A DNA stretch of 59,077 bases from an uncultured Chromatiales bacterium. GTDB taxonomy: Bacteria > Pseudomonadota > Gammaproteobacteria > SZUA-140. The position numbers and the translations under genes were made by a program. Under the pieces are notes generated by a model. The model was not told the origin of the DNA. It saw only the letters and a list, made by a program, of their open reading frames with translations, and made no database searches. Each line of letters starts with the position of its first letter. Within the stretch, counting starts at the first letter, position 1. Below, piece after piece: positions 5,310 through 56,124 of this stretch. The DNA lies in the NCBI GenBank assembly GCA_964388175.1, contig CAYLYS010000002.1, forward strand, positions 33,424-92,500, read 5' to 3'.

Positions 5310-5384
5310 GCATTCACTCCACGCTCAAAGTCCTGATCACGGGATCCGCCATCACGAGCGCCGCAGTCATGACAGCGGCGGCGG

Positions 5385-6761
5385 TCAGAAGAAAGTCGCG
5401 CCGACCTGGAACAGGCGTTCCACCTCGGCGATGCGCTTCTTGTCGACCACGAACAGAATGACGTGATCCTCGGCCTCGATGACCGTGTCGTGATGCGCCA
5501 TGATGACCTCATCGCCGCCGCGCACGATCGCACCGATGGTGGTGCCGGGCGGCAACTTGATGTGCTCGATGGCGCGGCCGACGACTCTGGACGATTTGGT
5601 ATCGCCATGCGCCACCGCCTCGATCGCCTCGGCGGCGCCGCGACGCAGCGAATGCACCATCACCACGTCGCCGCGCCGCACGTGGGCCAGCAGCCGGCCG
5701 ATGGTCGACAGATAGGGCGATATCGCGATATCGATGGTTCCGCTTTCGACCAGATCGATGTAGGCGGCGCGGTTGATCAGCGAGATCACCTTGCGCGCGC
5801 CGAGGCGCTTGGCCAGCATCGCGGAAAGAATGTTGGCCTCGTCGTCGTTGGTGACGGCGCAGAACACGTCGGTGTTCTCGATGTTCTCCTCCAGCAGCAG
5901 CTCTTCGTCGGCGGCGTCTCCGAGCAGGACCAGGCTGCGATCGAGCTCCTGCGACACATGCTGCACGCGCTCGGAATTGTGCTCGATCACCTTGACCTGG
6001 TAGCGCTGCTCCAGCGCCGCCGCCAGGCCGTAGCCGATATTGCCGCCGCCGGCGAGGATGATGCGCTTGACCTCCTTGTCGAGCCGGCGCATTTCACCCA
6101 TGACGGCGCGGATATCGCCGGTGGCGACGATGAAGAACACCTCGTCGTCCACCTCGATGACGGTATCGCCCTGCGGAATGATCGGCGCGCCGCGGCGGAA
6201 GATGGCGGCGACGCGGGTCTTGATCTCCGGCATGTGCTTGCCGAGTTCGCGCAGCTCATGACCGACCAGCGGCCCATCGTAATAGGCCCGGATGGCGACC
6301 AGCTGCACCTTGCCGCCGGCGAAATCGAGTACCTGCAGCGCGCCGGAGTATTCGATGAGGCGCTGCAGCTGATCGATCACCAGCTGCTCCGGGCTGATCA
6401 GCACGTCGACCGGCAGTGCGCCCTGGCCGAAGAGCTGCGGCGAACGCAGATAGTCGCGGGCGCGGATACGGGCGATCTTGATCGGCGTATGGAACAGCGT
6501 GAACGCGACCTGGCAGGCAATCATGTTCGTTTCGTCGCTGCTGGTCACCGCGATCATCATGTCGGCGTCCTCGGCGCCGGCACGGCGCAGCACGTCGGGA
6601 TGAGAAGCGGCGCCAAGCACGGTGCGCAGATCGAAGCGCTCCTGCAGATCGTGCAGACGCCGCGGATCGTGATCGATCACCGTGACGTCGTTGTCCTCAC
6701 GGGACAGATTCTCCGCCACCGAAGCGCCGACCTGGCCGGCGCCGAGCACGATGATTTTCAT
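5385..6761 (-). CDS. trkA: Trk system NAD-binding peripheral subunit
   Basis: 458 aa with two RCK-N Rossmann repeats ([19 protein letters not shown] and [17 protein letters not shown]), the classic TrkA architecture. Confidence 0.92.
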
Positions 6762-6784
6762 GATGCGTCCAATCCGCCGGTGTT

Positions 6785-8137
6785 CTAGTCGTGCTTGGGC
6801 TTTATGCCCAGCATGCGCAGCTTGCGGTAGAGATGAGTGCGCTCGATGCCGGCGCGATTGGCGACGTCGGCAATGTTGCCGCCGACCATGCTCATCTGGT
6901 ATTCGAAGTAGGCGCGCTCGAACTCGGCGCGCGCCGTGCGCAGCGGCGCATCGAAGCTCACCGGCAAACCGGCGGCCTGACGGCTGCGCGCGCCGAGCGC
7001 ATGCTCCACCTCATCCAGCGATATTTCCTCGCCCGAACCCAGGATCAACAGGCGCTGCACCAGGTTCTTCAGTTCACGCACATTGCCGGGCCAGGAATGG
7101 GCGCAAAGGCGGTTCCTCGCCGCCGCCGAGAAACGGCGCTGCGGCAGCTTCTCGTTCTGCACGAACACATCGACGTAGTAATCGAGTATCTCCGGCACAT
7201 CTTCGCTGTGCTCGCGCAGCGGCGGCACGCGCACCGGCACGACGTTGAGCTGATAATAGAGATCCTCGCGAAACCGGCCCGCAGCGATGTATTCCTGCAG
7301 ATCGCGATGCGTGGCCGCGACCACGCGCGCGTCGAACTGTACCGGATCATGCCCGCCGACGCGGACAAAGGATTTGTTCTCCAGCGCTCCCAGCAGCTTG
7401 GCCTGCACCCCCGCGTCCATATCGGCCACTTCGCCGAGGAAGAGCGTGCCGCCATTGGCCTGCTCCAGATAACCGTAATGGATATTGCTGCCCTGCTCGG
7501 ATCCGAACAGCGCGCCCGCGGCATTCTCGCTGGCGATGGCGGCCACGCCGGCATCGACGAAGGGGCCATTGCTGCGCGCGCCGCTGAAATGCAGATAGCG
7601 CGCCAGCAGCTCCTTGCCGGCGCCGGGTTCGCCGCTGATCAGCACCCAGGCATTGTGACGGGCGATGCGCAGCGCCTGCGTGCGCAGTTCCTGCATGACC
7701 CTGCTGCCGCCGATCGGCTCGATCAGCGTATGCGCCTGGCGACGCAGATCGATGTTCTCGCGCTGCAGCTTGCCCACCTCGAGCGCGCGCTGCACGCTCA
7801 GCAGCAGCTTGGACAGCGACAGCGGTTTCTCGACGAAATCGTAGGCGCCGAGCCGGGTCGCCTCGACCGCCGTTTCCACCGTGCCGTGACCGGAAATCAT
7901 GATGACCGGGCTGTCGAAACCGCCCTGCTGCACCCATTCGCGCAGCAGCGTGACACCGTCGGTATCGGGCAACCACACGTCCATCAGCACCAGATCGGGA
8001 CGGCGCAGGCGGCGCGCCTGGCGCGCTTCCTCGGCGGTCTCCGCCACGCTGACTTCATAACCTTCATCCACCAGGATATCGCGCACCAGTTCGCGGATAT
8101 CCTTTTCGTCATCGATGACCAGAACATGGGCGCTCAT
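6785..8137 (-). CDS. ntrX: Response regulator with sigma54-type AAA+ domain and Fis-type HTH, NtrX-like
   Basis: It has a REC domain ([12 protein letters not shown]...[11 protein letters not shown]), a Walker A (GEPGAGKE) and a C-terminal HTH ([21 protein letters not shown]). GAFTGA is replaced by a divergent loop, as in NtrX. It overlaps ntrY by 4 nt. Confidence 0.8.
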
Positions 8138-10440
8138 TTTTCCACCTGTCTGCCGTTATCCGTCAGCTTCGTTCTTCCCTCGCCAGCGATATTACCGGCG
8201 ATATCACCAGCCACATTGCCGGCCTGATGAACAGGCGCGGCAGGCGCCGCTTCGTCCTTCGGCGCCGCATCACAAGGGAAACGCATCACGATCACCGCCC
8301 CGCCTTCGGGCGCACTCTCGGCCCAGACACTGCCGCCGTGCTCCTCGACGATCTTCTTGACGATCGCCAGCCCGAGACCACTGCCCTTGCGCTTGGTGGT
8401 GATGTAGGGCTCGAAGGAGCGGCCCAGCATATCGGCAGGCAGTCCGGGCCCGTTGTCCTGCACGCGCATTTCCGCGACCCGCTCTCCTTCCGGGCCGAGC
8501 AGCGCGGTCTGGATGGTGATGACGAAATCCTGATCGGCCGGCGCCGCCTCGATCGCGTTCTTGAGCAGATTGTGCAGCAACTGGCGCATGCGGCCCGGAT
8601 CGACGCGCAGCCTGGGCAGCGCGGCATCGAAGCGGGTGACGAAATGCCTGCGACTCGCTTCCTCGCGGTAAAGATCGAGCACTTCGTTGATCAGGGTGTG
8701 CAGATCGAGCCACTGCGGACGCAGCTGGGGCGTGCGCGCGTACTCGGAGAACGCCTTCACCATTTCCTCCATCACTTCCACCTGCTGCACGATGGTGTGC
8801 GTCGAGCGGTCGAGAATTTCGGCATCGCCGGGCTCCATGCCATGCAGATACTTGTGACGCAGGCGCTCGGCGGAGAGGCGTATCGGCGTCAGCGGATTCT
8901 TGATCTCATGCGCGAGCCGGCGCGCCACCTCGCCCCAGGCGGCGTCGCGCTGTACCTGCACCAGCGCCGTCACATCCTCGAACACCAGCACGTTACCGCC
9001 GTGCTGATGCTCATCGCCGGCGAGCGAGGCGCCGCCACACATGAGTATGCGCCGTCCGGAAGCAGCATGGATGACGATTTCCTCGCGCCAGTCTTCCGCT
9101 TCGGCCAGATGCGGACGGATGGCGTCGACGAACTGCGCCAGGTATTCATGGTCGTTGCCGATGCTCACCAGCGGTTTGCCCACGTAGTTTCTCAAATCAG
9201 CGCCGAGGATCTGGCCGGCGGCGTGATTGGTTGTCCGGATCACCCGCCGCCGGTCGAGCGTGATGACGCCCGAAGAAAGGCGCCCGAGCACCGCGCGCAA
9301 GTAGGCGCGCTCGCCCTCGGCCTGGCGCTGGCTGAGCTGCGCCTCGTCGCGCGCCTGGGCCAGCCGGCGCGTCATCTCGTTGAAGGACTGCACCAGGAAA
9401 CCCATCTCATCGTTGGAATAGTGCGGCAGCTGGCGATCGTAATTGCCGGAAGCAACCGCCCGCGTGCCGACGGCGAGCACCCGGATCGGCGCCACCAGCC
9501 GCCGCGCCGAGAAAAAGGCCGCCCACACTGCCAGCAGCAGGCTGAGCAGGAGCACCAGCGACAGCGTCAGCACAAAGCTGCTTTTCAGCGGTCCGCGCAG
9601 ATAGGCGAGCTGCTGATAGCGGCTGGTCGCCTCCTCGACGCTGGCGGCCAGCGCGTTCATATGGCCCGACACCGGATACAGCGCCTGCAGCAGGCGCGGA
9701 TCCTCGGTCGGACTCGATAGCGGCAGCTCGATGAGGATGCGGATATACAGATCGAAGTTGCCGACCGGATCCAGGCCGACGTAGTTGGTGCCCTGCCTGA
9801 CCTGGCGCATGATCACTTCCGACGGCAGATGCGGCAGTATCGCCAGCGGATTCGCACTGCTGAAAGCGATGATGTGCCCGCTGGCGCCGATCAGGGTCAG
9901 CTCATAGACATCGCTCTGCGCTCTCATGTCGTTGAGCACGATCGCCGCCTGGTTGCCGGGCAGAAAGGAAAGCGCGCCGCCGATCTGATGGGTGCGCCGC
10001 AGATAGTCGCGCTTGCGTTCGTCGAGCGAGATCCGGCTCAGTTCGAGCGCATCGTCGAAGGCACGCTCGAACTGCACGTCGAACCAGCTGTCGACGCCGC
10101 GGGCGATGAAATCGAGCGAGAAATAATAAACCACCGCACCCGGCATGAGCGCCAGCGTGATGAAGATCGCCAGCAACCGCGCCGTGAGGCGCGAGCCGAC
10201 GACACCGGCACGGTATTGCCGCACCAGACGCGCCAGATTGGCCACGATCAGCACCATCAGCGTGATCAGACCGATCACGTTGAGCACGAGCAGGGAAATG
10301 TACAGGCGGCTGAAGTCGTCGGAATTGCGTGTCGCCGCGCCCATCAGATAGAGCGACACCAGCAGCAGCACCGACAGCGCCAGGATCGGCAGGATGCCGA
10401 TGGCCAGCCCGCGCGGATTCAGAAATGCCACTCGTGCCAC
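8134..10440 (-). CDS. ntrY: Membrane sensor histidine kinase (TM-HAMP-PAS-HisKA-HATPase), NtrY-like
   Basis: 768 aa with N-terminal TM helices, the H-box LAHEIKNPLTPI, N/G boxes (LLKNAIEA, DNGPGL, GSGLGLAIV), and position upstream of ntrX. Confidence 0.8.
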   Translation of the reverse strand: MARVAFLNPRGLAIGILPILALSVLLLVSLYLMGAATRNSDDFSRLYISLLVLNVIGLITLMVLIVANLARLVRQYRAGVVGSRLTARLLAIFITLALMPGAVVYYFSLDFIARGVDSWFDVQFERAFDDALELSRISLDERKRDYLRRTHQIGGALSFLPGNQAAIVLNDMRAQSDVYELTLIGASGHIIAFSSANPLAILPHLPSEVIMRQVRQGTNYVGLDPVGNFDLYIRILIELPLSSPTEDPRLLQALYPVSGHMNALAASVEEATSRYQQLAYLRGPLKSSFVLTLSLVLLLSLLLAVWAAFFSARRLVAPIRVLAVGTRAVASGNYDRQLPHYSNDEMGFLVQSFNEMTRRLAQARDEAQLSQRQAEGERAYLRAVLGRLSSGVITLDRRRVIRTTNHAAGQILGADLRNYVGKPLVSIGNDHEYLAQFVDAIRPHLAEAEDWREEIVIHAASGRRILMCGGASLAGDEHQHGGNVLVFEDVTALVQVQRDAAWGEVARRLAHEIKNPLTPIRLSAERLRHKYLHGMEPGDAEILDRSTHTIVQQVEVMEEMVKAFSEYARTPQLRPQWLDLHTLINEVLDLYREEASRRHFVTRFDAALPRLRVDPGRMRQLLHNLLKNAIEAAPADQDFVITIQTALLGPEGERVAEMRVQDNGPGLPADMLGRSFEPYITTKRKGSGLGLAIVKKIVEEHGGSVWAESAPEGGAVIVMRFPCDAAPKDEAAPAAPVHQAGNVAGDIAGNIAGEGRTKLTDNGRQVEK

Positions 10441-11057
10441 CCGCTGCCGAGCGCCCAGCCCGGACTCACCAGTGCGCGCAGACGCAGCGGAACCGGCAGC
10501 GCGTTGGTGTCTATACGCGCCTGCAGTCTGCCGCTGTAGACCCCGTTGCGATCGAGCAGGCCGGCATCGATCACCGGCAGATCGACGACGCGGCCGAGTC
10601 CGGCGATCGCGGCCTGCAGTGTGGGATAGGCGGTCTGGGTGCCGATATTGATGTTGCGGATCACGTACTGGCGGGTAAGCGCGTGGTAATCGAGTTCATA
10701 GCGCTGCTGCAGCGTGGTCACCGTCTCGTCCCAGAGATAGGATCGTTCGCGCAGGATTTCGATTTCGAGCAGGATCGGCAGCACGATGCCGCGGTCCAGC
10801 GCTTCCAGCAGTTGCCGGCCCAGGCGGTAATCGATGCCGGCGTCGAGATAATAGACATCGTCCTTGAGCGCGACCTGCACGCCATCGATGTCGATGCCGG
10901 CGGCAGTGCCGGTATGGGCATCGCCGTCGGTGACAACGCCGGTATCGACCATGCCGGCATCCGGCGGAAACTCTTCCTGGGCGTACGCGGCGCCGGCCCA
11001 TGCCGTCGACAGGCACATCACGAGCAGGCCGATCTGCGCGGCATGCGCCAGCGTCAT
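10419..11057 (-). CDS. Secreted protein of unknown function in the rsmB-ntrY gap (DUF4390-like by position)
   Basis: Track ORF 10419..11192, with start moved to ATG 11057 (MTLAHAAQIGLLVMCLSTAWAGAAYA, signal-peptide-like). This start sits just after the rsmB stop at 11068. The family name is inferred from the conserved rsmB-X-ntrY synteny only. Confidence 0.55.
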   Translation of the reverse strand: MTLAHAAQIGLLVMCLSTAWAGAAYAQEEFPPDAGMVDTGVVTDGDAHTGTAAGIDIDGVQVALKDDVYYLDAGIDYRLGRQLLEALDRGIVLPILLEIEILRERSYLWDETVTTLQQRYELDYHALTRQYVIRNINIGTQTAYPTLQAAIAGLGRVVDLPVIDAGLLDRNGVYSGRLQARIDTNALPVPLRLRALVSPGWALGSGWHEWHF

Positions 11058-11067
11058 GACGGAAATC

Positions 11068-12378
11068 CTAAGTGCGGAGCTTGTCCACGCATGCGTAGAA
11101 AAAACCATCCATCCCATTTTCACCCGGAAGAATCTGGCGACCGCAGGACAATGCCCTGCCCCAGGCGGCGTCGATCGCGCGGGCGCGGGCATCCGGGCGC
11201 CGGGCGAGAAAATCCTCTATCTGGGCATTATTTTCCTGATGCATGATAGAGCAAGTGGCGTACAAGAGCATCCCGCCCGGCGCGAGCAGCGTCCACGCCG
11301 CATCCAGCAGCGCGCGCTGCTGGACGGCGAGTGCGGCGAGATCCTCCGGCCGGCGCAGGCGCTTGATGTCCGGATGCCGGCGTATTACACCGCTCGCCGA
11401 ACACGGCGCATCGAGCAGGATGCGATCAAACGGCACCCCGTCCCACCATGATTGCGGACAGGCGGCGTCGGCGCAGATCAGTCGCGCCTGCAGGCCGAGA
11501 CGGTCCAGCGTCTCGCGCACGCGCTGCAGCCGGCCCTCGTCTATATCGACCGCGCACAGATCGACATTCGCATTCAATTCCAGAATGTGGGCGCTCTTGC
11601 CGCCGGGCGCGGCGCACAGATCGAGCACACGCTGGCCGGCGGCGATGCCGAGCAGCGGCGCGGCAAGCTGCGCCGCGCCGTCCTGCACCGATACGCGCCC
11701 GGTGGCAAAACCCGGCAGGCGCATGACATCCACGGGCTCGTCCAGCAGCAGCGCATCGGCGCCGGCCGCAGCGGCGGCGGCGATGCCGGCAGCCTCCAGC
11801 TCGCGCAGATAATCGTCGCGCGTTCCCTGACGCCGGTTGACGCGCAGCCACATCGGCGCACGCTGGTTGTTCTCCTGCGCGATGCCGCGCCAGTCCGCGG
11901 GCCAGTCCGCACGGATGCGCTGCAACAGCCAGGCGGGATGCGCCAGCGCCGCCACTTCGTCTTCGTCGGCGCGGGCGAGCAGCGCATCGCGCTCGCGCTG
12001 GAAACGCCGCAGCACCGCATTCACCATGCCGCGCGCCCAAGGCTTGCGCAGCACCGCCGTCACCGCCACCGTCGCCGCCACCGCCGCGTGCTCCGGCACG
12101 CGCGTATGGATCATCTGGTACAAACCGATCAGGATCAGGCAGTGCACGTCGGCATCGCGCGGCGGCAGCGGCCGATGGACCAGCTCGCGTGCGACCGCTT
12201 CCAGGCGCGGCCACCAGCGCAGCACGCCATAACAGAGGTCCTGGGCGAAAGCGCGGTCGCGCGCCGCGGCGATGCCCGGCAGCGTTTCCGCACAGGCCGC
12301 GGTCAGCGAACGGCCACTGGAAAATACGGCGAGCAGAATCTGTACGGCGGCGTAACGGGGGTCGGTCGCACCGCTCAT
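11068..12378 (-). CDS. rsmB: 16S rRNA (cytosine967-C5)-methyltransferase
   Basis: 436 aa with an N-terminal NusB-like domain and a C-terminal m5C methyltransferase domain ([37 protein letters not shown]). It is in the fmt-rsmB operon. Confidence 0.9.
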
Positions 12379-13319
12379 GTCCGCGCACCGCCGCCGGGCG
12401 CGGCACGGGCGGCGTTGAGAAAATCGGCGACGGCGAGGGGGCGGCCGCCGGGACGCTGGATTTCGAGCAGGCGCAGCACGCCGTCACCGGTGGCGACGTC
12501 GATACCGTCGCGTCCCGCATCGAGCACCGTCCCCGGCGGCAGCGCGGCGCAATCGCCGGATATGACCCGTGCGCGCCAGACGCGCAGCGGCCCGTAGCCA
12601 TCCAGTTCGGCGTGGCTGACCGGCCAGGGATTGAACGCTCTCACCTTGCGTTCGAGCTGGGCAGCCGGCTGCCGCCAGTCGAGCGCAGCCTCGGCCTTGT
12701 CGATCTTTGCCGCGTAGGTGGCGAGCGCATCGTCCTGCGTCACCGCCGGCAGCGATCCGTCCACCAGTCCAGCGAGAGCGGCGCGCAGCGCCGTCGCGCC
12801 CAGTCCGGCGAGGCGGTCGTGCAGACTGCCGCCGGTATCATCGGGCGCGATGGGACAGGGCAGGCGATAGAGCATGGGGCCGGTATCGAGACCGGCCTCC
12901 ATCTGAATGATGGTGACGCCGCTTTCCGTGTCCCCGGCGAGCAGGGCGCGCTGGATCGGCGCCGCGCCGCGCCAGCGCGGCAGCAGGGAGGCGTGCACAT
13001 TGATACAGCCGAGGCGCGGAATCGCCAGTACCGCACGCGGCAGGATCAGCCCATAGGCGACCACCACCATGAGATCGGGCGCGTAAGCCGCGAGCGTGGA
13101 TTCCGTCGCCGGGTCGCGCAGCCGCTCGGGCTGATGCACCGGGAGGCCGTGCTCGCCGGCCAGCAGCTTCACCGGGCTCGGCCGCAACTGGCGTCCGCGA
13201 CCGGCGGGACGATCCGGCTGGGTGAAGACGGCGACGACCTCGCACGGCGCGGACAGCAGCGCCTGCAGGGATACGGCAGCGAACTCCGGCGTGCCGGCGA
13301 AAACGATGCGCATCGTCAC
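12375..13319 (-). CDS. fmt: Methionyl-tRNA formyltransferase
   Basis: 314 aa: [12 protein letters not shown]..., [20 protein letters not shown] (SLLP motif). It has 4-nt overlaps with def and rsmB. Confidence 0.92.
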
Positions 13320-38695: not shown

Positions 38696-39049
38696 TCAGC
38701 CGCCCTTGGCACCCCTCCCCCGCACCGCCGCCGCCACCCGCTCCAGCAGCTTCGGCGTCACCCGATCTTGACGCTCGATCTTGCTGATGTAGGCCTGGCT
38801 GACACCCATCCGCCGCGCCAGTTCGGCCTGCGACAGACGCGCCCTGACGCGCGCGAGGGCGACGGGGTTATCGACGTAATCCTCGAGCCGGAACGGAACA
38901 TAGTCCTTGCCTGCCCTGTCGGGGCGCTCCTTGAGCTTGCGCTCCAGATCGCCACGCAGACGCTGGAACAAGTCATAGGGCAGCAACACGTATTCCGGTT
39001 TGCCGTCCAGCGACTGGATGACCTGGATCTTCTTCAAGGCCGAGCTCAC
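38696..39049 (-). CDS. XRE-family HTH antitoxin (HigA-like position)
   Basis: 117 aa with a C-terminal HTH, RARLSQAELARRMGVSQAYISKIER. It overlaps the upstream toxin gene by 4 nt. Confidence 0.75.
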   Translation of the reverse strand: MSSALKKIQVIQSLDGKPEYVLLPYDLFQRLRGDLERKLKERPDRAGKDYVPFRLEDYVDNPVALARVRARLSQAELARRMGVSQAYISKIERQDRVTPKLLERVAAAVRGRGAKGG

Positions 39050-39309
39050 TTATAAACGTCTCCCCGCATTCCTATGCGATGAATCGCGATCACCCGCGTT
39101 TCGTCGTCGCGGGTGAACAGAATCCGCCAACCGCCGACGCGCAAGCGCCATTCCGAGCGACCGGCCATCGCCTTGACGTTCAGCGCCGGTGCATCGGGAT
39201 CATCCCCCAACACCTGAATCCGTTCGGCGATGCGCTGCCGCGTCGTTCGGTCGAGGCGGACCAGCATGCGCTGCGCCTCGCGATGGATGACGATCGTCCA
39301 TGTCGTCAT
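39046..39309 (-). CDS. RelE/ParE-superfamily type II toxin
   Basis: Track ORF 39046..39450, with start at ATG 39309 (MTTWTIVIHREAQRML...WRLRVGGWRILFTRDDETRVIAIHRIGMRGDVYK). This is the canonical RelE/ParE C-terminal pattern. Confidence 0.8.
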   Translation of the reverse strand: MTTWTIVIHREAQRMLVRLDRTTRQRIAERIQVLGDDPDAPALNVKAMAGRSEWRLRVGGWRILFTRDDETRVIAIHRIGMRGDVYK

Positions 39310-39552
39310 GGTTATATCATAAGGTTGTATTTTATTGTATCTCGGCAAGCATGACCGCTGAGGAACTACCCCATGTTCGGTGGCCGGGAGGATCAGGGAT
39401 AGAACAGACGGCCCGGAATCGAAACAGGCTACCGTCTGATTTTCCTGCACGGCGGGAAAGGCGAATCGGCAGATCCGCCCTCCGGTGCTATCATCGGAAA
39501 ATTCCCCCGGCCGGCCGGTATTCCAACGATAAACAACGGGTTGATTCCACCA

Positions 39553-40430: not shown

Positions 40431-41906
40431 ATGAAATACACCGATCTGCGCGACTTCATCGCCATGCTGGAAAAATCCGGTGAACTGGTACGCGTCGGCA
40501 CCGAGGTGGATCCGCGCCTGGAAATGACCGAGATCTGCGACCGCACGCTGCGCCGCGGCGGCCCGGCGATTCTGTTCGAAAATCCGAAGGGACACGACAT
40601 CCCGGTGCTCGCCAACCTCTTCGGCACGCCGCACCGCGTCGCACTCGGCATGGGCGCCGACTCGGTCGACGCGCTGCGCGAGATCGGCAAGCTGCTTGCC
40701 TACCTGAAGGAACCGGAACCGCCCGCCGGCCTGCGCGACGCCTGGGACAAATGGCCGGTGCTGAAACAGGTACTCAATATGAACCCGAAAACGGTCGGCA
40801 GCGCGCCCTGTCAGCGCAACGTGATCGAAGGCGACGACGTCGACCTCTCGCGCCTGCCGATCCAGACCTGCTGGCCCGGCGACGCCGGCCCGCTCATCAC
40901 CTGGGCACTGGTGGTGACGCGCGGACCGCACAAGCCGCGGCAGAACCTCGGCATCTACCGCCAGCAGGTGATCGGCCGCAACCGCGTCATCATGCGCTGG
41001 CTCGCGCACCGCGGCGGCGCGCTCGACTTCAGGGACTGGCAACAGAAACATCCGGGCGAACCCTTCCCCGTCGCCGTCGCCCTCGGCGCCGACCCGGCGA
41101 CCATCCTCGGCGCGGTGACGCCGGTACCGGACACGCTGTCGGAATACGCCTTCGCCGGCCTGCTGCGCGGCGGCAAGACCGAAGTGGTCAAATGCATCGG
41201 CAGCGACCTCACCGTACCGGCGAGCGCGGAGATCGTGCTCGAAGGCCACATCGCGCCCGGCGACATGGCCGACGAAGGCCCCTTCGGCGACCACACCGGC
41301 TACTACAACGAAGTGGAACGCTTCCCCGTCTTCACCATCGACCGCATCACCCACCGCGACAGCCCGATCTATCACAGCACCTACACCGGCCGCCCGCCGG
41401 ACGAACCCGCCGTGCTCGGCGTCGCGCTCAACGAAGTCTTCGTGCCCATCCTGCAAAAGCAGTTCCCGGAGATCATCGACTTCTACCTGCCGCCCGAAGG
41501 CTGCTCCTATCGGATGGCCTGCGTCAGCATGCGCAAGCAATACCCCGGCCACGCCAAGCGCGTGATGCTCGGCATCTGGTCCTTCCTGCGCCAGTTCATG
41601 TACACCAAATTCGTCATCGTCGTCGACGACGACATCGACGTACGCGACTGGAAGAGCGTGGTCTGGGCCATGACCACCCGCATGGACCCGCACCGCGACA
41701 TGGTCTTCATCGACAACACGCCGATCGATTATCTCGATTTTGCCTCGCCGGTATCGGGGTTGGGATCGAAGGTCGGGTTTGATGCGACCAATAAGTGGAA
41801 GGGAGAGACGAACCGCGAGTGGGGGCTACCGATTGAGATGGATGCGGGGGTTAGAGGGAAGGTGGATGAGATTTGGGAGGGGCTGGGGATATTTGGAAAG
41901 GAATAA
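40431..41906 (+). CDS. ubiD: 4-hydroxy-3-polyprenylbenzoate decarboxylase
   Basis: 491 aa: [22 protein letters not shown]..., [10 protein letters not shown], full-length UbiD. Confidence 0.93.
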
Positions 41907-42268
41907 ACGCCGGACTGATAATCCCAATAAGTCGCCGCTCTCAAAAAACGTCACCTTCAACAGCAGATTGCCAAAAACTCAGATGTCGCTATTGGTTTTA
42001 TACGTCATTTTTGACATCTAATTATAGTTGGGCCGCTCGGATCAACCTCTATGGCTGTGTGGGTTTCCGCTGCTGCTACCGCGTTGCGCAAGCTCCGTGC
42101 TCCAGAGTTCAGCGCCGCACCTTCATTCCCGATCGTTCATAGCGCAAGCCACTGGCTGACGGAGGTGTGCGCCGCAACGGGCTTCCCGAGAGTTCTCGGG
42201 GCAAGCTTGCCGTCGCAAGGTTTTGGCGTACAGTTTCGTCAGGCAGGCCGTTGGCATCGTCGCCGGCG

Positions 42269-42328
42269 GCCCAACAATTCGTTCAAGCCGACGCCGCTTC
42301 GCGGCGCGGCTTAACTCAAGCGTTAGGG
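42269..42328 (+). repeat. attC-like site 1 (60 bp)
   Basis: GCCCAAC-aattcgttcaagccgacgccgcttcgcggcgcggcttaactcaagc-GTTAGGG. The arms TTCAAGCCG / CGGCTTAAC and GCCGC-ttc-GCGGC pair. It is homologous to site 2. Confidence 0.6.
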
Positions 42329-42336
42329 TTGATCGA

Positions 42337-42444
42337 ATGGAATTTATAATTGGCCTTTTAAAGGTTCTAATAGGTGGCTTCATTCTGTTCACATTGGCGA
42401 GAATTACCTATGAAAGTATTGGCAAAAAATCAAAGTGGGGTTAG
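42337..42444 (+). CDS. 35-aa hydrophobic peptide (single TM) in cassette 1
   Basis: ATG lies 8 nt after attC1: MEFIIGLLKVLIGGFILFTLARITYESIGKKSKWG. The cassette is AT-rich. There is no homology call. Confidence 0.35.
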   Translation: MEFIIGLLKVLIGGFILFTLARITYESIGKKSKWG

Positions 42445-42453
42445 GTAGTTTTT

Positions 42454-42675
42454 GTGGGTGGTTTAGCTTTAACGAATATGCTGATTTATCGCTTATTTGG
42501 TAGCTCAATAAACCCTCCATTTTTTACTGCTGTTTGGTTTGCTATTACTCTTTTAGGTCTCGCTCCTAAAGAATCTCCCACGGTATCTCTTTGGTATAAA
42601 AGAGGCTTCTATGCAATCGTATTGGGTACTATTGTTGGCTGGGCATCCTATGCTGAAGTTATCACACTACCCTAA
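42454..42675 (+). CDS. 73-aa small membrane protein (2-3 TM) in cassette 1
   Basis: Track ORF with a GTG start (alternative ATG at 42478). The sequence is hydrophobic (FFTAVWFAITLLGLAP, AIVLGTIVGWASY). Its TAA stop lies inside the attC2 left box. Confidence 0.45.
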   Translation: MGGLALTNMLIYRLFGSSINPPFFTAVWFAITLLGLAPKESPTVSLWYKRGFYAIVLGTIVGWASYAEVITLP

Positions 42676-42729
42676 CCCATCATTCAAGCGGAACTGGCTA
42701 AAGCCAGCCCCTTAATTCAAACGTTAAGC
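42670..42729 (+). repeat. attC-like site 2 (60 bp)
   Basis: CCCTAAC-ccatcattcaagcggaaCTGGCtaaaGCCAGccccttaattcaaac-GTTAAGC. It has a perfect central hairpin, and its arms resemble those of site 1. Confidence 0.7.
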
Positions 42730-42743
42730 GTCGCCCCATCGTC

Positions 42744-43250
42744 ATGCCAGCATTACCCATAACAACATTCGCTTCACTCGCCCGGGAGTACTGCGCATGG
42801 GCCACTGGCGCTGATGGCTCGTCCATGACAGAGCGTGGCGCCCTGCAGAACATCTGTAGGCTCTATGTGGCAGCGCTGGAGTTGCCGCCTCCGTGGAACG
42901 AAGCCCTTCCCGTCGAGGTGCCGGATATCGAACTATCCCAGTCCGAGATAGATGCAGTCCAGGCGCGGGCGTCTGAACTGCAGCGGCAAATCTACTGGGA
43001 AACCTTCGATCCATATCAAGATCCGCCAGAGCAACCGGTCATTGGACATCTGACCGACGACCTTGGGGATATATATCGGGACATCGCAAGAGGGATTCTA
43101 CTTTTCGACAGCGGTCGAGTTGATGAAGCACTTTGGGAGTGGGCCTTCAACTTCCGAATACACTGGGGAGAACACGCAACTGGCGCGATACGTGCTCTTC
43201 ATGCTTACCTCGCGCAGGAAGACCCTGATGGCCTATCACGCGACTCCTAA
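42744..43250 (+). CDS. Cassette-borne hypothetical protein, 168 aa (possibly DUF5063-like)
   Basis: Track ORF. ATG lies 14 nt after attC2, and the TAA stop lies inside the attC3 left box. The protein is acidic and helical, with ...WEWAFNFRIHWGEHATGAIRALHAYL. The family guess is from memory, at low confidence. Confidence 0.6.
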   Translation: MPALPITTFASLAREYCAWATGADGSSMTERGALQNICRLYVAALELPPPWNEALPVEVPDIELSQSEIDAVQARASELQRQIYWETFDPYQDPPEQPVIGHLTDDLGDIYRDIARGILLFDSGRVDEALWEWAFNFRIHWGEHATGAIRALHAYLAQEDPDGLSRDS

Positions 43251-43355
43251 CAAGCGGTTCGGGTCGGACGCTTTCCTGCGGGCGCTCATGAACCGCGTAA
43301 TATTCTCGGTCCACGAACGCCCGCAGGAAAGCGCCACTCAACCGCGGCGTTAAGC
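43245..43355 (+). repeat. attC-like site 3 (111 bp)
   Basis: TCCTAAC ... GTTAAGC, with a 16-bp perfect inverted repeat CGCTTTCCTGCGGGCG (43269-43284) / CGCCCGCAGGAAAGCG (43318-43333) and outer arms AAGCGGTT / AACCGCGGC. Confidence 0.7.
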
Positions 43356-43364
43356 CGCACAGAG

Positions 43365-43906
43365 ATGCCCCAGTTCGTAGCCCTGCTCCGCGGAGTGAAT
43401 GTAGGCAAGGGAAACCGAGTGCCTATGGCCGAGTTCAGGCTCATGCTCGAGCAGATCGGCTACACCGAGGTCAAAACGCTGCTCAATAGTGGTAATGCCG
43501 TCTTTACCAGCTCCGGGCGCTCAGGAAAGAAGCACGCTCAGGTCATCGCGGCTTCACTACACAGCAGGGGTTCGGTGTGTCTACGTCTGTCATCGTAAAA
43601 TCGGCCGCGGAACTGGCCGCGATCATCAAAGACAACCCGATGGTTCCATCCGAATCAGAGCACTCGCGGTTGCTTGTGGCATTCGGGCAAGAAAAATCCG
43701 CACTGCGGTCGCTGGAGCTGCTGCTACCGCTGGCCAAAGACCCAGAGCGTCTGGTCATCACCAGCAAGGCAGCCTACCTGCGCTGTCCGGCAGGGTTGTT
43801 GGAGAGCAAGGTTGGAGAGGCGATGCTTGGCAAGGCGGGCAGAGGAGTCACCACGCGCAACTGGGCTACAGTACTCAAATTGGGCGTGCTGCTGAGTGCG
43901 GCCTAA
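43365..43906 (+). pseudogene. DUF1697 family gene split by a -1 frameshift at a G4 run (43567-43570)
   Basis: Track ORFs 43365..43598 (MPQFVALLRGVNVGKGNRVPMAEFR...NSGNAVFTS) and 43577..43906 (...VIVKSAAELAAIIKDNP...TTRNWATVLKL) together make one DUF1697 protein. A fifth G would restore ...HSRGFGVSTSVIV. Confidence 0.8.
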
Positions 43907-44006
43907 CAATCATTCAACGCACAACCTTCTTGCGAATTCTCTGGCACAAACCCCTGTCCATGCACATCTGGCTCGCGTAATATTCTGGGAATTTAACCAG
44001 TTATCA
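43901..44006 (+). repeat. attC-like site 4 (left arm clear, right boundary tentative)
   Basis: The left arm GCCTAACAATCATTCAACGC is nearly identical to the left arm of site 2. The right end GAATTTAACCA-GTTATCA resembles the site 2 right arm but pairs poorly. The interior shares CGCGTAATATTCT with site 3. Confidence 0.45.
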
Positions 44007-44017
44007 GGAGAAGTTTC

Positions 44018-44119
44018 ATGAGCAAAGGCATGGATCGAAAGAAGGAAGTCAAAAAGAAACCCGCCAAGACCCTGGAGGAAAAGCGCACTGTGAAAAAGGA
44101 GAAGAAGGCGAAGCGGTAA
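44018..44119 (+). CDS. 33-aa lysine-rich basic peptide (below the track length cut-off)
   Basis: AGGAG sits 7 nt upstream of the ATG: MSKGMDRKKEVKKKPAKTLEEKRTVKKEKKAKR, stop TAA 44117-44119. It resembles small basic proteins I recall from other proteobacterial genomes. The function is unknown. Confidence 0.5.
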   Translation: MSKGMDRKKEVKKKPAKTLEEKRTVKKEKKAKR

Positions 44120-44274
44120 TCCCAAGAACGGGGCGGATTCACTTCCCCTGATCGGGCAGTATCCGATGAGCTGCGGATTTCGAACCATTCGCCATTGAGC
44201 CTTGTAGGGGTTGGAAACGCGGGCTCCCGGCATAACAAACATCCAAACCAACGCCAGAGGCCAATAGAAGCACC

Positions 44275-45153
44275 GTGGACATCTTCCTGAGCAGACCAAC
44301 CTGGATACACGACAGCTATAAAACCGGGCTGCGGACTCTCGATACACAACTCAAGAACCTGGACATCATCCCTCGCACGCTGGGGATCAGTGATTACCCG
44401 AGCAAGGCGCCGCTCGACGAGGTGATCGAGCTGATGGGGAAATGCCAGGGCGCGATCATTCTCGGCATCCCCCAGATCAGCGTTACCGCCGGCCTGTTCA
44501 AAGCGGACGCCATCGACAATCCTTTCGATCTGGCCACGGAATGGAATCATCTCGAAGCAGCGCTCGCCTACTCTCTCGGACTGCCCATCGTCATCATCAA
44601 GCATGAGAGCGTTTCGAGAGGCATCTTCGATCGCGGCGTACTGAACGCTTTCGTCCACTCCATAGACATGAAACAGCCGGCCTGGTCGATGGAAGAAGCG
44701 ATCAACGGATCGTTGATTCAGTGGAAGCAGAACTGCCTCTCGGGGAAGGGTAATCTCTCGGTCGACAAGCAAGGCGGCCAAGCGAACACGCTCACCGCCA
44801 TTCTCGAAGCGCTCAGCAACACGCTGAACAGCCAGGCGCCGAAACATGAGTCGAACGTGGACGCGGCTTCGGTCGCCTTTCGCGAAGCGATGACGGAGAC
44901 GCAGATATACTTGTCATCGGCAACCCGATCCGGGAAGCGTGATTACCCGCAGGAAGCTGCTCTCGCAAGACTGTGGTCGAAAACCTCGACCGCCGCCCGG
45001 AAACACGCGACGGGACTCTCGGACCAGTGCCTGGAATTTTCACGCTACTGGGCAAACCCCGGAGAGGATCCGCTTGCCCAGGCAAGTCAGACGCTGGCGC
45101 TGATCGAGCGCATCTTCGCCAAAGCCCGCGAGGACGAAGTACTGAGCGAATAA
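44275..45153 (+). CDS. 292-aa protein with an N-terminal TIR-like/DUF4062-like (nucleoside 2-deoxyribosyltransferase-fold) domain and a helical C-terminal domain
   Basis: Track ORF with a GTG start. The pattern is DIFLSRP (beta1), ...CQGAIILGIP..., ...ATEWNHLEAALAYSLGLPIVII. This fits the strand/helix order and conserved Glu of TIR-like STIR/DUF4062/NDT domains. The C-terminal 130 aa match no family I recognise. The fold assignment is an inference. Confidence 0.6.
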   Translation: MDIFLSRPTWIHDSYKTGLRTLDTQLKNLDIIPRTLGISDYPSKAPLDEVIELMGKCQGAIILGIPQISVTAGLFKADAIDNPFDLATEWNHLEAALAYSLGLPIVIIKHESVSRGIFDRGVLNAFVHSIDMKQPAWSMEEAINGSLIQWKQNCLSGKGNLSVDKQGGQANTLTAILEALSNTLNSQAPKHESNVDAASVAFREAMTETQIYLSSATRSGKRDYPQEAALARLWSKTSTAARKHATGLSDQCLEFSRYWANPGEDPLAQASQTLALIERIFAKAREDEVLSE

Positions 45154-45175
45154 TATTGCCCTAGCCGATATCAGC

Positions 45176-45784
45176 ATGCGCTTTCAGGGAAGAATCACAG
45201 AGTGGCGTGATGAACAGGGTTACGGCTTCATCACGCCAAACGGCGGCGGAGAGCGCGTTTTCCTGCACATCAAGGCGTTCAAGTCACGGGCGCGACGGCC
45301 CACGGGTGGCGAGCTGGTCAACTTCGTCATGGGGCGTGACGACAAAGGCCGGCCGTGTGCTCAGCAGGTCGAGTATGCTTCCGTCCACAAACGGCCAGCG
45401 TCCGGCACGAAGAAAATTCCGCTCTCGCTTCCCTTCGCGGGCGGCTTCCTGAGCATCGTCGGGGCGCTCGTCCTCGCCGGTCAGGCGCCGATCGCCGTGC
45501 TGCTGGTATATCTTGGCCTGAGCGCGCTCACCTTCGGGGTATATGCAGCGGACAAGCACGCGGCGCAGAAAGGACAATGGCGCACGCCGGAAAGCACGCT
45601 GCAATTGCTCGCCCTGCTCGGCGGCTGGCCCGGTGCTCTGCTCGCCCAGCGGCTCCTGCGGCACAAATCACGGAAATCGTCTTTTCAGCTGGTGTTCCGG
45701 GTGGCGGTCGCCGTCAACGTCATCGCCTTCGCGTGGATCGCCTCCGGCGGCGATCCGCGGATGCTTGTGGAACTCATCGGGTGA
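45176..45784 (+). CDS. Cold-shock domain fused to a DUF1294 membrane domain
   Basis: 202 aa. GRITEWRDEQGYGFITPNGGGERVFLHIKAF forms a CSD with an RNP1-like GYGFI. ADKHAAQKGQWRTPESTLQLLALLGGWPGALLAQRLLRHKSRK is the DUF1294 signature. It starts 22 nt after the previous gene. Confidence 0.8.
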   Translation: MRFQGRITEWRDEQGYGFITPNGGGERVFLHIKAFKSRARRPTGGELVNFVMGRDDKGRPCAQQVEYASVHKRPASGTKKIPLSLPFAGGFLSIVGALVLAGQAPIAVLLVYLGLSALTFGVYAADKHAAQKGQWRTPESTLQLLALLGGWPGALLAQRLLRHKSRKSSFQLVFRVAVAVNVIAFAWIASGGDPRMLVELIG

Positions 45785-46029
45785 TGCTGAAGACTACCGG
45801 CGGGAGCGGCAAAGACGCCGCGCGCAAAGACAGAACCCGGTTTATGCCGGCATAGCCCTCTGCGCCCGCGCAGATTGTCCTTCGACCACAGACCTGCCCC
45901 GCTCCCGCCTGATATTCCTCCCGCCCGCCCGATGCGGGTCTCCGCATGGGTCACCTCCCCATGACAGAACCGGATTCATGCCAATTTCGCCGTAAAGCAG
46001 CGCGCGATAGATATGGCGGTCATACCCGA

Positions 46030-46059
46030 TTGACATCCACGTCTCTCAGTAAATATATT
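46030..46059 (+). promoter_or_regulatory. Candidate sigma70 promoter TTGACA-18-TATATT upstream of brnTA, next to the inverted repeat ATTGTA-TG-TACAAT (46057-46070)
   Basis: The hexamers were read directly. Caveat: the -10 element overlaps the only candidate start (TTG 46058) of the conserved BrnT frame, so either the promoter call or that start is wrong. Confidence 0.3.
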
Positions 46060-46352
46060 GTATGTACAATATCATATCGGATTCGAATGGGATCCCTCCA
46101 AGGATCGCGCCAACCGCAGCAAGCATGGCATCTCCTTTTGAAGAAGCCCGGTCCGCGTTCCTTGATGAGCATGCGATCCAGTTCTACGATGAGGATCATT
46201 CCGGGCCGGAAGATCGCTTCATCCTGCTTGGCATGAGCATCCGCTCAAGGATCCTGGTCGTATGTCATTGCGAGCGCGCTTCAGGGAAGATCATCCGGAT
46301 CATTTCCGCTCGCAAGGCAACGCCCTCCGAGCGAGCGTTCTACGACAGGTGA
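46058..46352 (+). pseudogene. brnT: BrnT-family (DUF497) toxin gene with a frame disruption at a T4 run (46136-46139)
   Basis: The conserved N-terminus FEWDPSKDRANRSKHGISF is in one frame (46082-46138, then TGA). The rest, EEARSAFLDEHAIQFYDEDHSGPEDRFILLGM...IIRIISARKATPSERAFY, is in the frame of track ORF 46062..46352. Removing one T joins them. Confidence 0.75.
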
Positions 46353-46356
46353 GGCC

Positions 46357-46581
46357 ATGAAAGCGGAATATGACTTCTCGAAGATGAAGCACAGAAAGAA
46401 TCCCTACGCCTCCGGCTTGAAGCGGCAGGTGACCATACGCATGAGCGAGGAGGTCGTCGCATACTTCAAGGCCATGGCGGAGGAAACGGGGATTCCATAC
46501 CAAAGCCTGATCAACCTCTATCTTCGCGACTGCGTCGCCAAGAACAGAAAGCTGGACGTAAACTGGCCGAAGCGCGCCTGA
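46357..46581 (+). CDS. brnA: BrnA-family antitoxin (ribbon-helix-helix)
   Basis: 74 aa. DFSKMKHRKNPYASGLKRQVTIRMSEEVVAYFKAMAEETGIPYQSLINLYLRDCV matches the BrnA pattern. It starts 4 nt after brnT. Confidence 0.8.
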   Translation: MKAEYDFSKMKHRKNPYASGLKRQVTIRMSEEVVAYFKAMAEETGIPYQSLINLYLRDCVAKNRKLDVNWPKRA

Positions 46582-46636
46582 CGATCAGAGGAAGCGAAGC
46601 CCTCCAGTCCGATCAGCAAACCCCACCTGCCCCCGC

Positions 46637-47839
46637 CTACAGCTCCACCTCAATCCGCTCGATCACCCGCCGCGCCTTTTCCCGCGCGGCGTCGATGCTG
46701 TCGCCCTTGGCCAGGGCCACGCCCAGTCGGCGCTGGCCGGTGACTTCGGGCTTGCCGAAGAGCTTGAGGTCGGTATCGGCTTCGGCGAGGGCGGCGGCGA
46801 GGTTGCCGTAGCGCATCTGTTTCGATTCGCCGTCCACCAGCAGGACGCAGGAGGCGGTCGGCCCCTGCTGGCGGATGGCGGGTACGGGCAGGCCGAGGAT
46901 GGCGCGGGCGTGCAGGGCGAATTCCGAGAGATTCTGCGACAGCAGGGTGACCAGGCCGGTGTCGTGCGGACGCGGCGAGACTTCGCTGAACCAGACCTCA
47001 TCGCCCTTCACGAAGAACTCCATGCCGAAGATACCCTGGCCACCCAGGGCGTCGGTGACTTTCCGCGCCACGTCCTGCGCGCGCTGCAGGGCAGCAGCGG
47101 ACATGGGCTGAGGCTGCCAGGATTCGCGGTAATCGCCCGCCTCCTGAAGATGACCGATGGGTTCGCAGAAGGAGGTGACGGTCCGGCCCTGGCCGTCGTT
47201 GTGACGCAGGGTGAGCAGGGTGATTTCGTAGTCGAAATCCACGAAGCCTTCGACGATGACACGGCCGGCGCCGGCACGGCCGCCGGACTGGGCGTAATCC
47301 CAGGCGGGGCGGATGTCGCCGGCGCTGCGCACCAGGCTCCGGCCCTTGCCGGAGGAGGACACGACGGGCTTGACCACGCAGGGCAGGCCGATGCGGGCCA
47401 CGGCCTGCTCGAAGGCATCGAAGCTGTCGACGAAGGTATAGGCCGAGGTCGGCAGGCCCAGGGTTTCGGCCGCCAGGCGGCGGATGCCTTCGCGGTTCAT
47501 GGTGAGCTGCGCGGCGCGGGCGGTGGGCACCACGCGCCAGCCTTCGGCTTCGAGCTTCACCAGTTCGTCGGTGGCGATGGCTTCGATTTCCGGCACGATC
47601 AGCGCCGGCCGTTCGGTTTCGATCACGCGGCGCAGGGCGACCCCGTCGAGCATGGAGATGACATGGCTGCGGTCCGCCACCTGCATGCCGGGGGCGTTGG
47701 GGTAGCGGTCCACGGCAATGACTTCGCAGCCGAGGCGCTTCAGTTCGATGATGACTTCGCGCCCCAGTTCGCCGGCGCCCAGCAGCAGGACGCGAGTGGC
47801 CGTGGGCGAAAAGGGTGTGCCGATGGCGGGCGATGTCAT
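46637..47839 (-). CDS. purT: Formate-dependent phosphoribosylglycinamide formyltransferase
   Basis: 400 aa: [31 protein letters not shown], an ATP-grasp core, full-length PurT. Confidence 0.93.
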
Positions 47840-55197: not shown

Positions 55198-56124
55198 ATG
55201 ACGCCCGATGAAGCATCATCCGATGATGCATTGGGCGAGGTCCTGACACGTTTCGCGGCGCACCTGCGGGCGCGCCGTCTGTCTCCGCACACGCAGCAGG
55301 CCTATCTGCGCGACCTCGATGCGCTGCGCGATCACTGCGGCAGGGAAGGGATCGCGGACTGGCGCGTTGTCGACGTGCATCGCGTGCGCGCCTTCATCGC
55401 TGCCGGACACCGCCGCGGCCTCGGCGCCAAAAGCCTGCAGCGCATGCTGTCTTCGCTGCGCGCCTTCTTCGATTTCCTGATCGGGGAAGGCATGCTCAAG
55501 CACAACCCCGCCGATGGCCTGCGCGCCCCGAAGTCACGGCGGCGCCTGCCGGAAATCCTCGATGTCGACCAGACCGCACGGCTCCTCGACATCCACGCCG
55601 ATGATCCGCTCGCCGTGCGCGACCACGCGCTGATGGAGCTGATCTATTCTTCGGGCCTGCGCCTCGCCGAAGCCGTGGGACTCGATCTCGGCGACGTCGA
55701 TCTCGACAGCCATATCGTCGACATCACCGGCAAGGGCGACAAGATGCGCCGCGTGCCGGTGGGACGGATGGCGCGCACGGCGCTGCGGCGCTGGATCGAA
55801 GCGAGCACGGCCCTGCGCGCGCCCGGGGAGACCGCGCTCTTCGTTTCCCGCCAGGGCCGGCGGCTGTCGCCGCGCAGCATGCAGATCCGCATCGACACCT
55901 GGGCGCGACGGCAGGGTATCGACATCAAGGTCCACCCGCACATGCTGCGTCACGCCTTCGCCAGCCACCTGCTCGAATCCTCCGGCGACCTGCGCGCCGT
56001 GCAGGAGCTGCTCGGCCACGCCGATCTCGCCACCACCCAGATCTACACTCACCTCGATTTTCAGCACCTCGCCAAGGTCTACGACGACGCGCATCCGCGC
56101 GCACGGCGGCGCACGCGCGACTGA
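55198..56124 (+). CDS. xerC: Tyrosine recombinase XerC
   Basis: 308 aa with the catalytic set R...HMLRHAFASHLL...LLGHADLATTQIYTHL. It is in dapF-yigA-xerC synteny. Confidence 0.88.
   Translation: MTPDEASSDDALGEVLTRFAAHLRARRLSPHTQQAYLRDLDALRDHCGREGIADWRVVDVHRVRAFIAAGHRRGLGAKSLQRMLSSLRAFFDFLIGEGMLKHNPADGLRAPKSRRRLPEILDVDQTARLLDIHADDPLAVRDHALMELIYSSGLRLAEAVGLDLGDVDLDSHIVDITGKGDKMRRVPVGRMARTALRRWIEASTALRAPGETALFVSRQGRRLSPRSMQIRIDTWARRQGIDIKVHPHMLRHAFASHLLESSGDLRAVQELLGHADLATTQIYTHLDFQHLAKVYDDAHPRARRRTRD

Follow-up and report, generated by a model that had tools for sequence, protein, structure and literature searches.

Clusters of attC sites lacking an integrase (CALINs), whose definition and known origins have been described (PMC4889954), are mostly short: 83% carry fewer than six sites (PMC4889954). 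A survey of 21,105 complete genomes counted 2961 CALINs. Their origin is a matter of debate, with integrase loss, rearrangement, insertion at secondary or attG sites and other routes under discussion. Here, we describe a locus of this kind in 59,077 nucleotides of DNA from an uncultured Chromatiales bacterium (GenBank assembly GCA_964388175.1, contig CAYLYS010000002.1; hereafter the window, whose numbering is used throughout). The window very probably carries a fragment of an integron cassette array, ~2.0 kb in length, inserted into the spacer that separates ubiD from a 33-residue open reading frame (ORF) of a high-G+C, Moraxellaceae-like gammaproteobacterium. The fragment consists of three complete attC sites (S1–S3) and the remnant of a fourth (S4), and it is absent from a close relative represented by a metagenome contig (L229).

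The element resembles described CALINs (PMC4889954) in being small, in having co-oriented attC sites and no intI, and in carrying cassettes that are mostly of unknown function and include no resistance genes. It differs from them in that both of its ends are ragged (the last attC is truncated and the leader is non-native and AT-rich), in that an array-free relative locates the insertion site to within ~10 nt, and in that three of the four cassettes appear to be non-functional or non-coding. Sedentary chromosomal integrons, such as those linked to ilvD in Xanthomonas and the Vibrio superintegron, are likewise chromosomal, with cassettes of unknown function and toxin–antitoxin genes nearby. In contrast to these, the present locus has no intI and no recognizable attI or Pc promoter, its three and a half sites are heterogeneous (60, 60 and 111 nt and one other) and missing from L229, and the BrnTA pair near it was inserted separately and has no attC sites.

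Three further comparisons concern individual parts of the locus. The attC sites of aadA1/aadB type have been assigned to the Xanthomonadales, where 99.4% of such sites were found (Ghaly et al., 2021; PMC8352920); S1 shares 53 consecutive nt and the bulges with the aadA1 attC, and S2 shares the 60-nt architecture and has similar arms. Unlike the aadA1/aadB sites of class 1 integrons, those in the window accompany non-resistance cargo, lack a class 1 backbone and lie in a Moraxellaceae-like host. The PurT protein of this host shares 83% identity with its counterpart in Amnimonas aquatica and 80–82% with those of Perlucidibaca (Moraxellaceae), and the host is therefore not a member of the Xanthomonadales. 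Cassettes inserted at attG sites and single attC sites lacking an integrase (SALINs; Loot et al., bioRxiv 10.1101/2022.09.11.507474) are comparable in lying outside an attI, beside a resident gene from which transcription might extend into them; the junctions seen here are not attC × attG products, however, with the last attC incomplete and the left flank non-native. The ORF-less cassettes of Tansirichaiya et al. (2019; PMC6557892) are matched by cassette 1, which has a body of ~235 nt that shows no sign of coding constraint, but the cassette 1 family occurs in multiple copies within arrays and its weak promoter-like match is not conserved.

Identification of the attC sites

Because Rfam gave no match here (none at gathering thresholds in the whole window and none at E ≤ 1 in 41850–44300), an attC covariance model was built. 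The input comprised 16 different attC sites taken from plasmid records of nine class 1 integrons with cassette arrays, and the canonical pairing of the R box and L box, with its bulged position, was imposed on the alignment. The whole window was searched on both strands with the filters off. Three matches were obtained at E ≤ 0.01, all on the forward strand and within 1.1 kb of one another; the next best had an E value of 0.62. An earlier reading of the letters (the original prediction) had proposed four attC-like sites, and the three matches are its first three, with the same limits and strand: S1 (42269–42328; 60 nt, 69.8 bits, E = 3.8e-16), which is of the aadA1/aadB kind, S2 (42670–42729; 60 nt, 42.0 bits, E = 9.3e-9) and S3 (43245–43355; 111 nt, 21.7 bits, E = 0.0021), which has a long variable terminal stem. 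The model thus gave the significant matches that the prediction required. As a control, 1.33 Mb of DNA around ubiD in 80 other gammaproteobacteria was searched and gave no match at E ≤ 0.01; the ubiD loci of these 80, among which there was no close relative, contained no integrase.

The R''/R' boxes are GCCCAAC and GTTAGGG in S1, CCCTAAC and GTTAAGC in S2, and TCCTAAC and GTTAAGC in S3, and they pair in folds of the bottom strands. When the imposed structure was applied to 23 independent sites, drawn from the window as well as from metagenome arrays unrelated to it, 89.9% of the cells were paired, compared with 16–48% in slid controls. The L-box helix was paired in 95.5% across these sites, with compensatory changes in six of its nine pairs. 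All three sites gave R/L-box hairpins with extrahelical bases, as had been anticipated for the bottom strands. The folds of S1 (z = −3.35) and S3 (z = −7.4; −39.8 kcal/mol) greatly exceed those of shuffled sequences in stability, and the bulged G and T of S3 both lie on the R''/L'' side. S2 is AT-rich and its unconstrained fold is weak (z = −1.5), but with the AAC/GTT pairing enforced it adopts an S1-like architecture with an R box and an L box. Its stems differ from those of S1 by compensatory changes, and in both sites the extrahelical G falls at top-strand position 16, where it is also found in the attC sites of aadA1 and aac(6')-Ib. The 16-bp perfect stem of S3 and the CTGGC/GCCAG stem of S2, both described earlier, are real.

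S1 is identical to the aadA1 attC over 53 consecutive nucleotides (positions 5–57) and shares its bulged T and G. It matches 2514 plasmid records, in every case at attC sites of aadA/aadB type. The match is confined to the 60 nt of S1: the rest of the island had no plasmid matches, no class 1 backbone and no resistance gene. Of the sites in the window, S1 alone is presumably likely to function in recombination, given its near-identity to the widely studied aadA1 attC. The occurrence of a site nearly identical to the clinical aadA1/aadB attC in an environmental chromosome outside the Xanthomonadales, with non-resistance cargo, points to wide travel of this attC type.

Limits of the insertion

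The array stretch lies between ubiD (40431–41906, forward strand) and purT (46637–47839, reverse strand), and its G+C content of 0.39–0.60 compares with 0.65–0.70 in the flanks. The relative L229 (Logan SRR12908358) was recovered through the 292-residue protein encoded to the right of the array. Its gene order is xth–ubiD, followed after 110 nt by the 33-residue ORF and then by the gene for the 292-residue protein, with no array. The nucleotide identity between L229 and the window is 92.75% up to the ubiD stop codon; homology ends at ~41911 and begins again at 43941–43951, and between that point and the ATG of the 33-residue ORF the identity is ~82%. Since L229 carries ubiD and then the 33-residue ORF without the array, the stretch ~41912–43945 is predicted to be an insertion of ~2.03 kb, with ~36 nt of the spacer replaced. 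The insertion point is pinned by L229 to within ~10 nt. Neither an insertion sequence (IS) nor a transposase or repeat lies beside the 2-kb insert.

The palindromes could in principle be unrelated to integrons and represent intrinsic terminators or repetitive extragenic palindromic (REP)-like repeats, and G+C-rich hairpins that directly follow stop codons are what such a reading would lead one to expect. It is effectively refuted by the results. The 53-nt identity of S1 to the aadA1 attC and the confinement of model matches to a 1.1-kb stretch, with none in the 1.33-Mb control, both argue against it, as does the cassette-specific complementarity of R' and R'' described below. S1–S3 have no T-tracts and no terminator-like sites were called at them, and because the sequences are wholly absent from so close a relative as L229 the hairpins are not conserved terminators, an outcome that had been named as a way in which the original prediction could fail.

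To the left of the first cassette lies a leader (41912–42026, forward strand) of 115 nt and 38% G+C that is absent from the empty site of L229. It gave no match to the attC model, and the promoter-like matches upstream of the first cassette are weak ones only. The leader ends ...TTATAG/TT (the slash marking the crossover), that is, with an AT-rich run followed by a G/TT core. Its likeness to attI1, or to the attI region of the metagenome contig L101, is limited to the core, and it may be a candidate attI remnant.

Three Logan contigs (L001, L002 and L092, from SRR16797981 and SRR16798010) are 99.97–100% identical to the window and break at 42296/42297, within S1, and at 43972, just to the right of the junction. 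These breaks could reflect the attC repeats, the coexistence of alleles with and without the array, or both.

The truncated fourth site

The original prediction had placed a fourth attC site at 43901–44006, with a right arm ending in GTTATCA. Its left arm is genuine, because the start of cassette 4 is complementary to the R'' end of the site at 11 of 12 positions. The remainder did not hold up. Over 43901–44006 no model match was obtained, either in the whole window or in a 2.9-kb search (43800–46700), and the bottom-strand fold is no better than those of shuffled sequences (z = +0.24). The proposed right arm (43951–44006) was rejected, as homologous DNA is present in the array-free L229 and is therefore native sequence upstream of the 33-residue ORF; where the window has GTTATCA, the supposed R' box, L229 reads GTTAACA. 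S4 accordingly comprises 43901–43945 (forward strand), retaining the R'' box, the spacer, the L'' box and the first part of the variable region, and has an S2-like left arm. Its right boundary is uncertain within 43941–43950, and truncation occurred after ~40–50 nt. The reverse complement of the left half of S4 was sought across the window and was not found, and metagenome contigs scanned for the exact pattern of the left arm gave no matches.

The window has just two copies of the 13-mer CGCGTAATATTCT, one within the apical loop of S3 (43294–43306) and one at 43974–43986. The second copy belongs to the native region upstream of the 33-residue ORF, where L229 has GGCGTAATATTTT. It was considered as a shared attC-loop motif and as a microhomology junction, and both were rejected, the second copy being native and 25–30 nt away from the junction.

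Cassettes and their cargo

The insertion contains four co-oriented cassettes, three of which have a complete attC. The first begins at a core site, GTTGGGC (42027–42033, forward strand; crossover G/TT), that is complementary at ten of ten positions to the R'' end of the same cassette, GCGGCCCAAC. The corresponding start-to-end complementarity of the inverse cores is 8/8, 10/12 and 11/12 in cassettes 2, 3 and 4. Such complementarity following G/TT is the signature expected of cassettes that would once have been circles. TAA stop codons lie within the R'' (left) boxes of S2, S3 and S4, and the next start codon follows the right box of sites 1–4 (for site 4, the box as originally placed) after 8, 14, 9 and 11 nt, respectively; both features had been noted previously and were reproduced here.

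Cassette 1 (42028–42322, forward strand; 295 bp) belongs to a family of ~300-bp cassettes. It contains an open frame of 87 codons, the last 15 of which are the attC. Altogether, 14 distinct copies of the family were found in nine sources (the window and eight metagenome loci), and the relatives sit in arrays of aadA-type attC sites, often in several copies: contig L175 has three in tandem, and L201 has four in an array of at least 23 cassettes. The family body of ~235 nt is conserved and includes invariant blocks, among them the palindrome GGCAAGCTTGCC. The variable columns are distributed over the three codon positions as 33, 39 and 43 of 72, so that there is no codon periodicity, and codon differences within the family number ~183 nonsynonymous to 38 synonymous. 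A protein-coding gene was rejected on both of these grounds. A structured RNA was rejected in view of the lack of covariation, and sRNA-Xcc1 or another curated RNA in view of the lack of any Rfam match in the window or the related arrays. A weak promoter-like match (TTGGCA-16-AACAAT, 42251–42278) within cassette 1 is not kept across the family. Cassette 1 is probably non-coding. We suggest, tentatively, that it represents an undescribed family of non-coding cassettes that either has a role at the DNA level, for instance as an internal promoter or operator by which transcription is restarted or regulated deep in long arrays, or amplifies selfishly; if so, the 87-codon ORF is not a gene.

The L201 array occupies 3803–12630 (reverse strand) of contig Ga0209794_1000518 and runs to the contig end. 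Its attC sites, at least 23 in number and scoring 31–76 bits, are all of the aadA, aadB and aac(3)-Ia ('Xanthomonadales-type') kinds, and L201 may be a sedentary source array for attC sites of this type.

Cassette 2 (42323–42723, forward strand; 401 bp, ~39% G+C) contains one hydrophobic, membrane-protein-like frame of 112 codons with an in-frame TAG at 42442–42444, and its product had no family matches. Cassette 3 (42724–43349, forward strand; 626 bp) carries an intact DUF5063 gene (42744–43250; Pfam PF16702, E = 2.5e-26), the closest solved relative of which is an uncharacterized Bacteroides protein. Homologues of its product are widespread on short metagenome contigs. In other arrays, including L101 and L093, some of them (59–60% identical) have attC sites on either side, and one such array adjoins a fragment of an IntI gene (the N-terminal half) with 52.7% identity to IntI1. 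A copy that is 78% identical lies behind a NERD cassette in contig L230, with homology starting at G/TT. Cassette 4 (43350–43945, forward strand) is truncated at its 3' end and carries a DUF1697 gene that is frameshifted (43365–43598 and 43577–43906), with positions 1–68 and 73–137 of the Pfam PF08002 profile found in different frames.

Two of the four cassettes (2 and 4) are thus predicted to be pseudogenes, and the DUF5063 gene is the only one that appears to be intact. PADLOC gave no match for any cassette product, and the array carries no resistance genes. The suggestion that the array is a reservoir of adaptive or anti-phage genes was not borne out, its contents being two pseudogenes, one cassette that looks non-coding and one DUF5063 gene, with no defence match. 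The heterogeneous attC sites, the differing G+C content of the cassettes and the empty site in L229 indicate that the cassettes were putatively acquired horizontally and are of mixed origin.

Classification

IntI1 and a fragment of an environmental IntI served as tblastn queries against the window. The only match was an ORF at 55198–56124, 11 kb from the array, and no IntI pseudogene was detected. This ORF scores 351.9 against the NCBIfam XerC model (cut-off 335.15) and 130.5 against the integron-integrase model (cut-off 265), in agreement with the earlier statement that the window has no integron integrase. The ubiD stop codon lies 120 nt upstream of cassette 1, and there is no IntI homologue. 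Because XerC is the only tyrosine recombinase in the window, the element falls within the CALIN definition: two or more attC sites on the same strand are spaced by at most 4 kb, and neither intI nor a pseudogene of it is present within 4–10 kb. It is not a complete integron, as no intI adjoins the array, nor a mobile integron of classes 1–5, for which a class-specific intI, backbone and resistance cassettes are lacking. The short run of heterogeneous sites and the absence of the array from L229 also set it apart from a sedentary chromosomal integron. The original description of a co-oriented ORF–attC array in a chromosomal context with no integrase nearby, and hence of a CALIN, is upheld, although with three complete sites and a truncated one in place of four. 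From its sequence, we regard the element as a genuine but ordinary, partly decayed CALIN of three and a half sites. The decay is predicted from one nonsense mutation and one frameshift, and the element, being small, is probably of little phenotypic consequence.

Origin and predicted behaviour

Of the routes by which the fragment could have arrived, we favour capture of foreign DNA by illegitimate recombination without IntI, to which we give about an even chance. This is proposed because a complete att site is found at neither end and because ~36 nt of the native spacer has been replaced. The ends of the insert lie inside, and not at, recombination sites, which points to the capture of a fragment without an integrase, and in this respect the locus is a clean example of one CALIN origin. 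If the ragged ends and the clean empty site are read correctly, it would document a CALIN made by IntI-independent capture of an array fragment.

The left junction, with its clean G/TT, would also be expected had IntI inserted a multi-cassette circle at an attG (5'-GWT-3') provided by a GTT in the spacer, with later trimming of the right attC. Insertion of cassettes at genomic attG sites by IntI is a possible source of small CALINs and SALINs (bioRxiv 10.1101/2022.09.11.507474), and the native GTTATCA of the window (GTTAACA in L229) lies 50 nt beyond the junction on its right side. The product of attC × attG recombination retains the whole attC up to the G of R', however, whereas S4 ends after ~40–50 nt and native sequence restarts 50 nt ahead of GTTATCA. 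On the left, the 115 nt preceding the first G/TT should be native, yet L229 lacks them and their G+C content is 38%. With a non-native leader on the left and a break within an attC on the right, the locus does not fit a clean insertion of this type unless extra deletions are assumed; at least two additional events are required, and we consider this route quite unlikely.

The same leader bears on a second route, the decay of a resident integron. If intI and the distal part of an array had been deleted downstream of ubiD, an attI remnant and four cassettes would have been left behind; the end of the leader resembles the AT-rich run before the attI1 crossover, pseudogenized cassettes point to age and decay, and the loss of intI is an accepted route to CALINs (PMC4889954). 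Against this stand the lack of any IntI pseudogene remnant in the window and of any scar in the L229 spacer. The ubiD stop codon is just 120 nt from cassette 1, and the 3' end of ubiD is the same in the array-free L229. The attC types and G+C contents are also heterogeneous, which is unlike an integron of long residence, and we regard this origin as improbable.

Given that the window covers 59 kb of the genome only, the fragment might instead have been separated or copied from a functional integron elsewhere in the genome, the IntI of which would still serve it. About half of CALINs share their replicon with an IntI gene, and rearrangements are recognized among their sources (PMC4889954). With no flanking IS, transposase or repeat, with the insertion tiny, ragged-ended and situated within an intergenic spacer, and with no sign of a resident integron in the window, a split of this kind is unlikely.

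Several points weigh against the interpretation given above. The attC model is home-made, from 16 sequences and with a short calibration, and is not that of IntegronFinder; taken by itself, the E value of S3 is moderate. The gain of the array here, as opposed to its precise loss in L229, would follow from composition and parsimony with a single relative. The two ragged ends are the whole basis for proposing illegitimate recombination. The search for intI spanned 59 kb, and an intI elsewhere would alter the dynamics of the element but not its classification as a CALIN.

The array would be inert by itself and unable to rearrange. An IntI provided in trans, whether encoded at another locus of the genome or brought in by a mobile integron, could act on the folded bottom strands of S1–S3. 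Recombination of S1 with S2 could then free cassette 2, and that of S2 with S3 could free cassette 3, as circles available for capture at an attI. Cassette 4 would be immobilized because its attC is truncated, and cassette 1 would have no recognizable upstream partner site. As no Pc promoter is recognizable, any expression would occur by read-through from ubiD or from internal promoters; no terminator-like site was predicted from ubiD to the array.

Neighbouring genes

The genes to the right of the array were considered as further cassettes and were rejected, since no attC sites were found at the 33-residue ORF, the 292-residue protein gene, the CSD-DUF1294 gene or BrnTA. The first two, moreover, follow ubiD in the array-free L229, and in another relative (PurT 93% identical) purT directly adjoins the CSD-DUF1294 gene. 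The 33-residue, lysine-rich ORF (MSKGMDRKKEVKKKPAKTLEEKRTVKKEKKAKR; 44018–44119, forward strand) is kept in L229 together with its upstream region and probably encodes a real small basic protein. The gene for the 292-residue protein (44275–45153, forward strand) is native, following ubiD in L229 too, and its product had no match in Pfam, NCBIfam or PADLOC. The N-terminal ~155 residues are common to 695 proteins with varied C-termini, and this domain is modelled by AlphaFold with a predicted local distance difference test score (pLDDT) of >90. In Foldseek searches it is weakly similar to cytidine monophosphate (CMP) N-glycosidases (MilB/BcmB), nucleoside 2'-deoxyribosyltransferases and TIR domains (E values of 1e-3 to 1e-2, template-modelling scores of 0.55–0.70).

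On the left side of the array, the last ~60 codons of ubiD (41720–41906) show a decrease in G+C content at third codon positions from ~0.9 to ~0.7 and a shift to G-ending codons. This tail predates the insertion of the cassettes, because it is the same in L229. The 3' end of ubiD was therefore rejected as an island junction; there is also no displaced 3' fragment of ubiD and no repeat. Further upstream, beyond xth, two small overlapping ORFs of 117 and 134 residues occupy 38696–39450 (reverse strand). The 117-residue product has weak matches, far below the cut-offs, to helix-turn-helix antitoxins (HipB-like), the 134-residue product matches no NCBIfam family, and the two look like another toxin–antitoxin pair.

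The BrnT/BrnA genes (45786–46610) represent a separate 825-bp insertion, because CSD-DUF1294 directly abuts purT in the related contigs L226 and L227. The region includes a strong promoter-like sequence (TTGACA-18-TATATT, 46030–46059) beside a palindrome that is a candidate operator. Upstream of brnT, a 20-nt direct repeat, GACAGAACC(C/G)G(G/A)TT(T/C)ATGCC, occurs at 45829–45848 and 45963–45982, its two copies being 134 nt apart.

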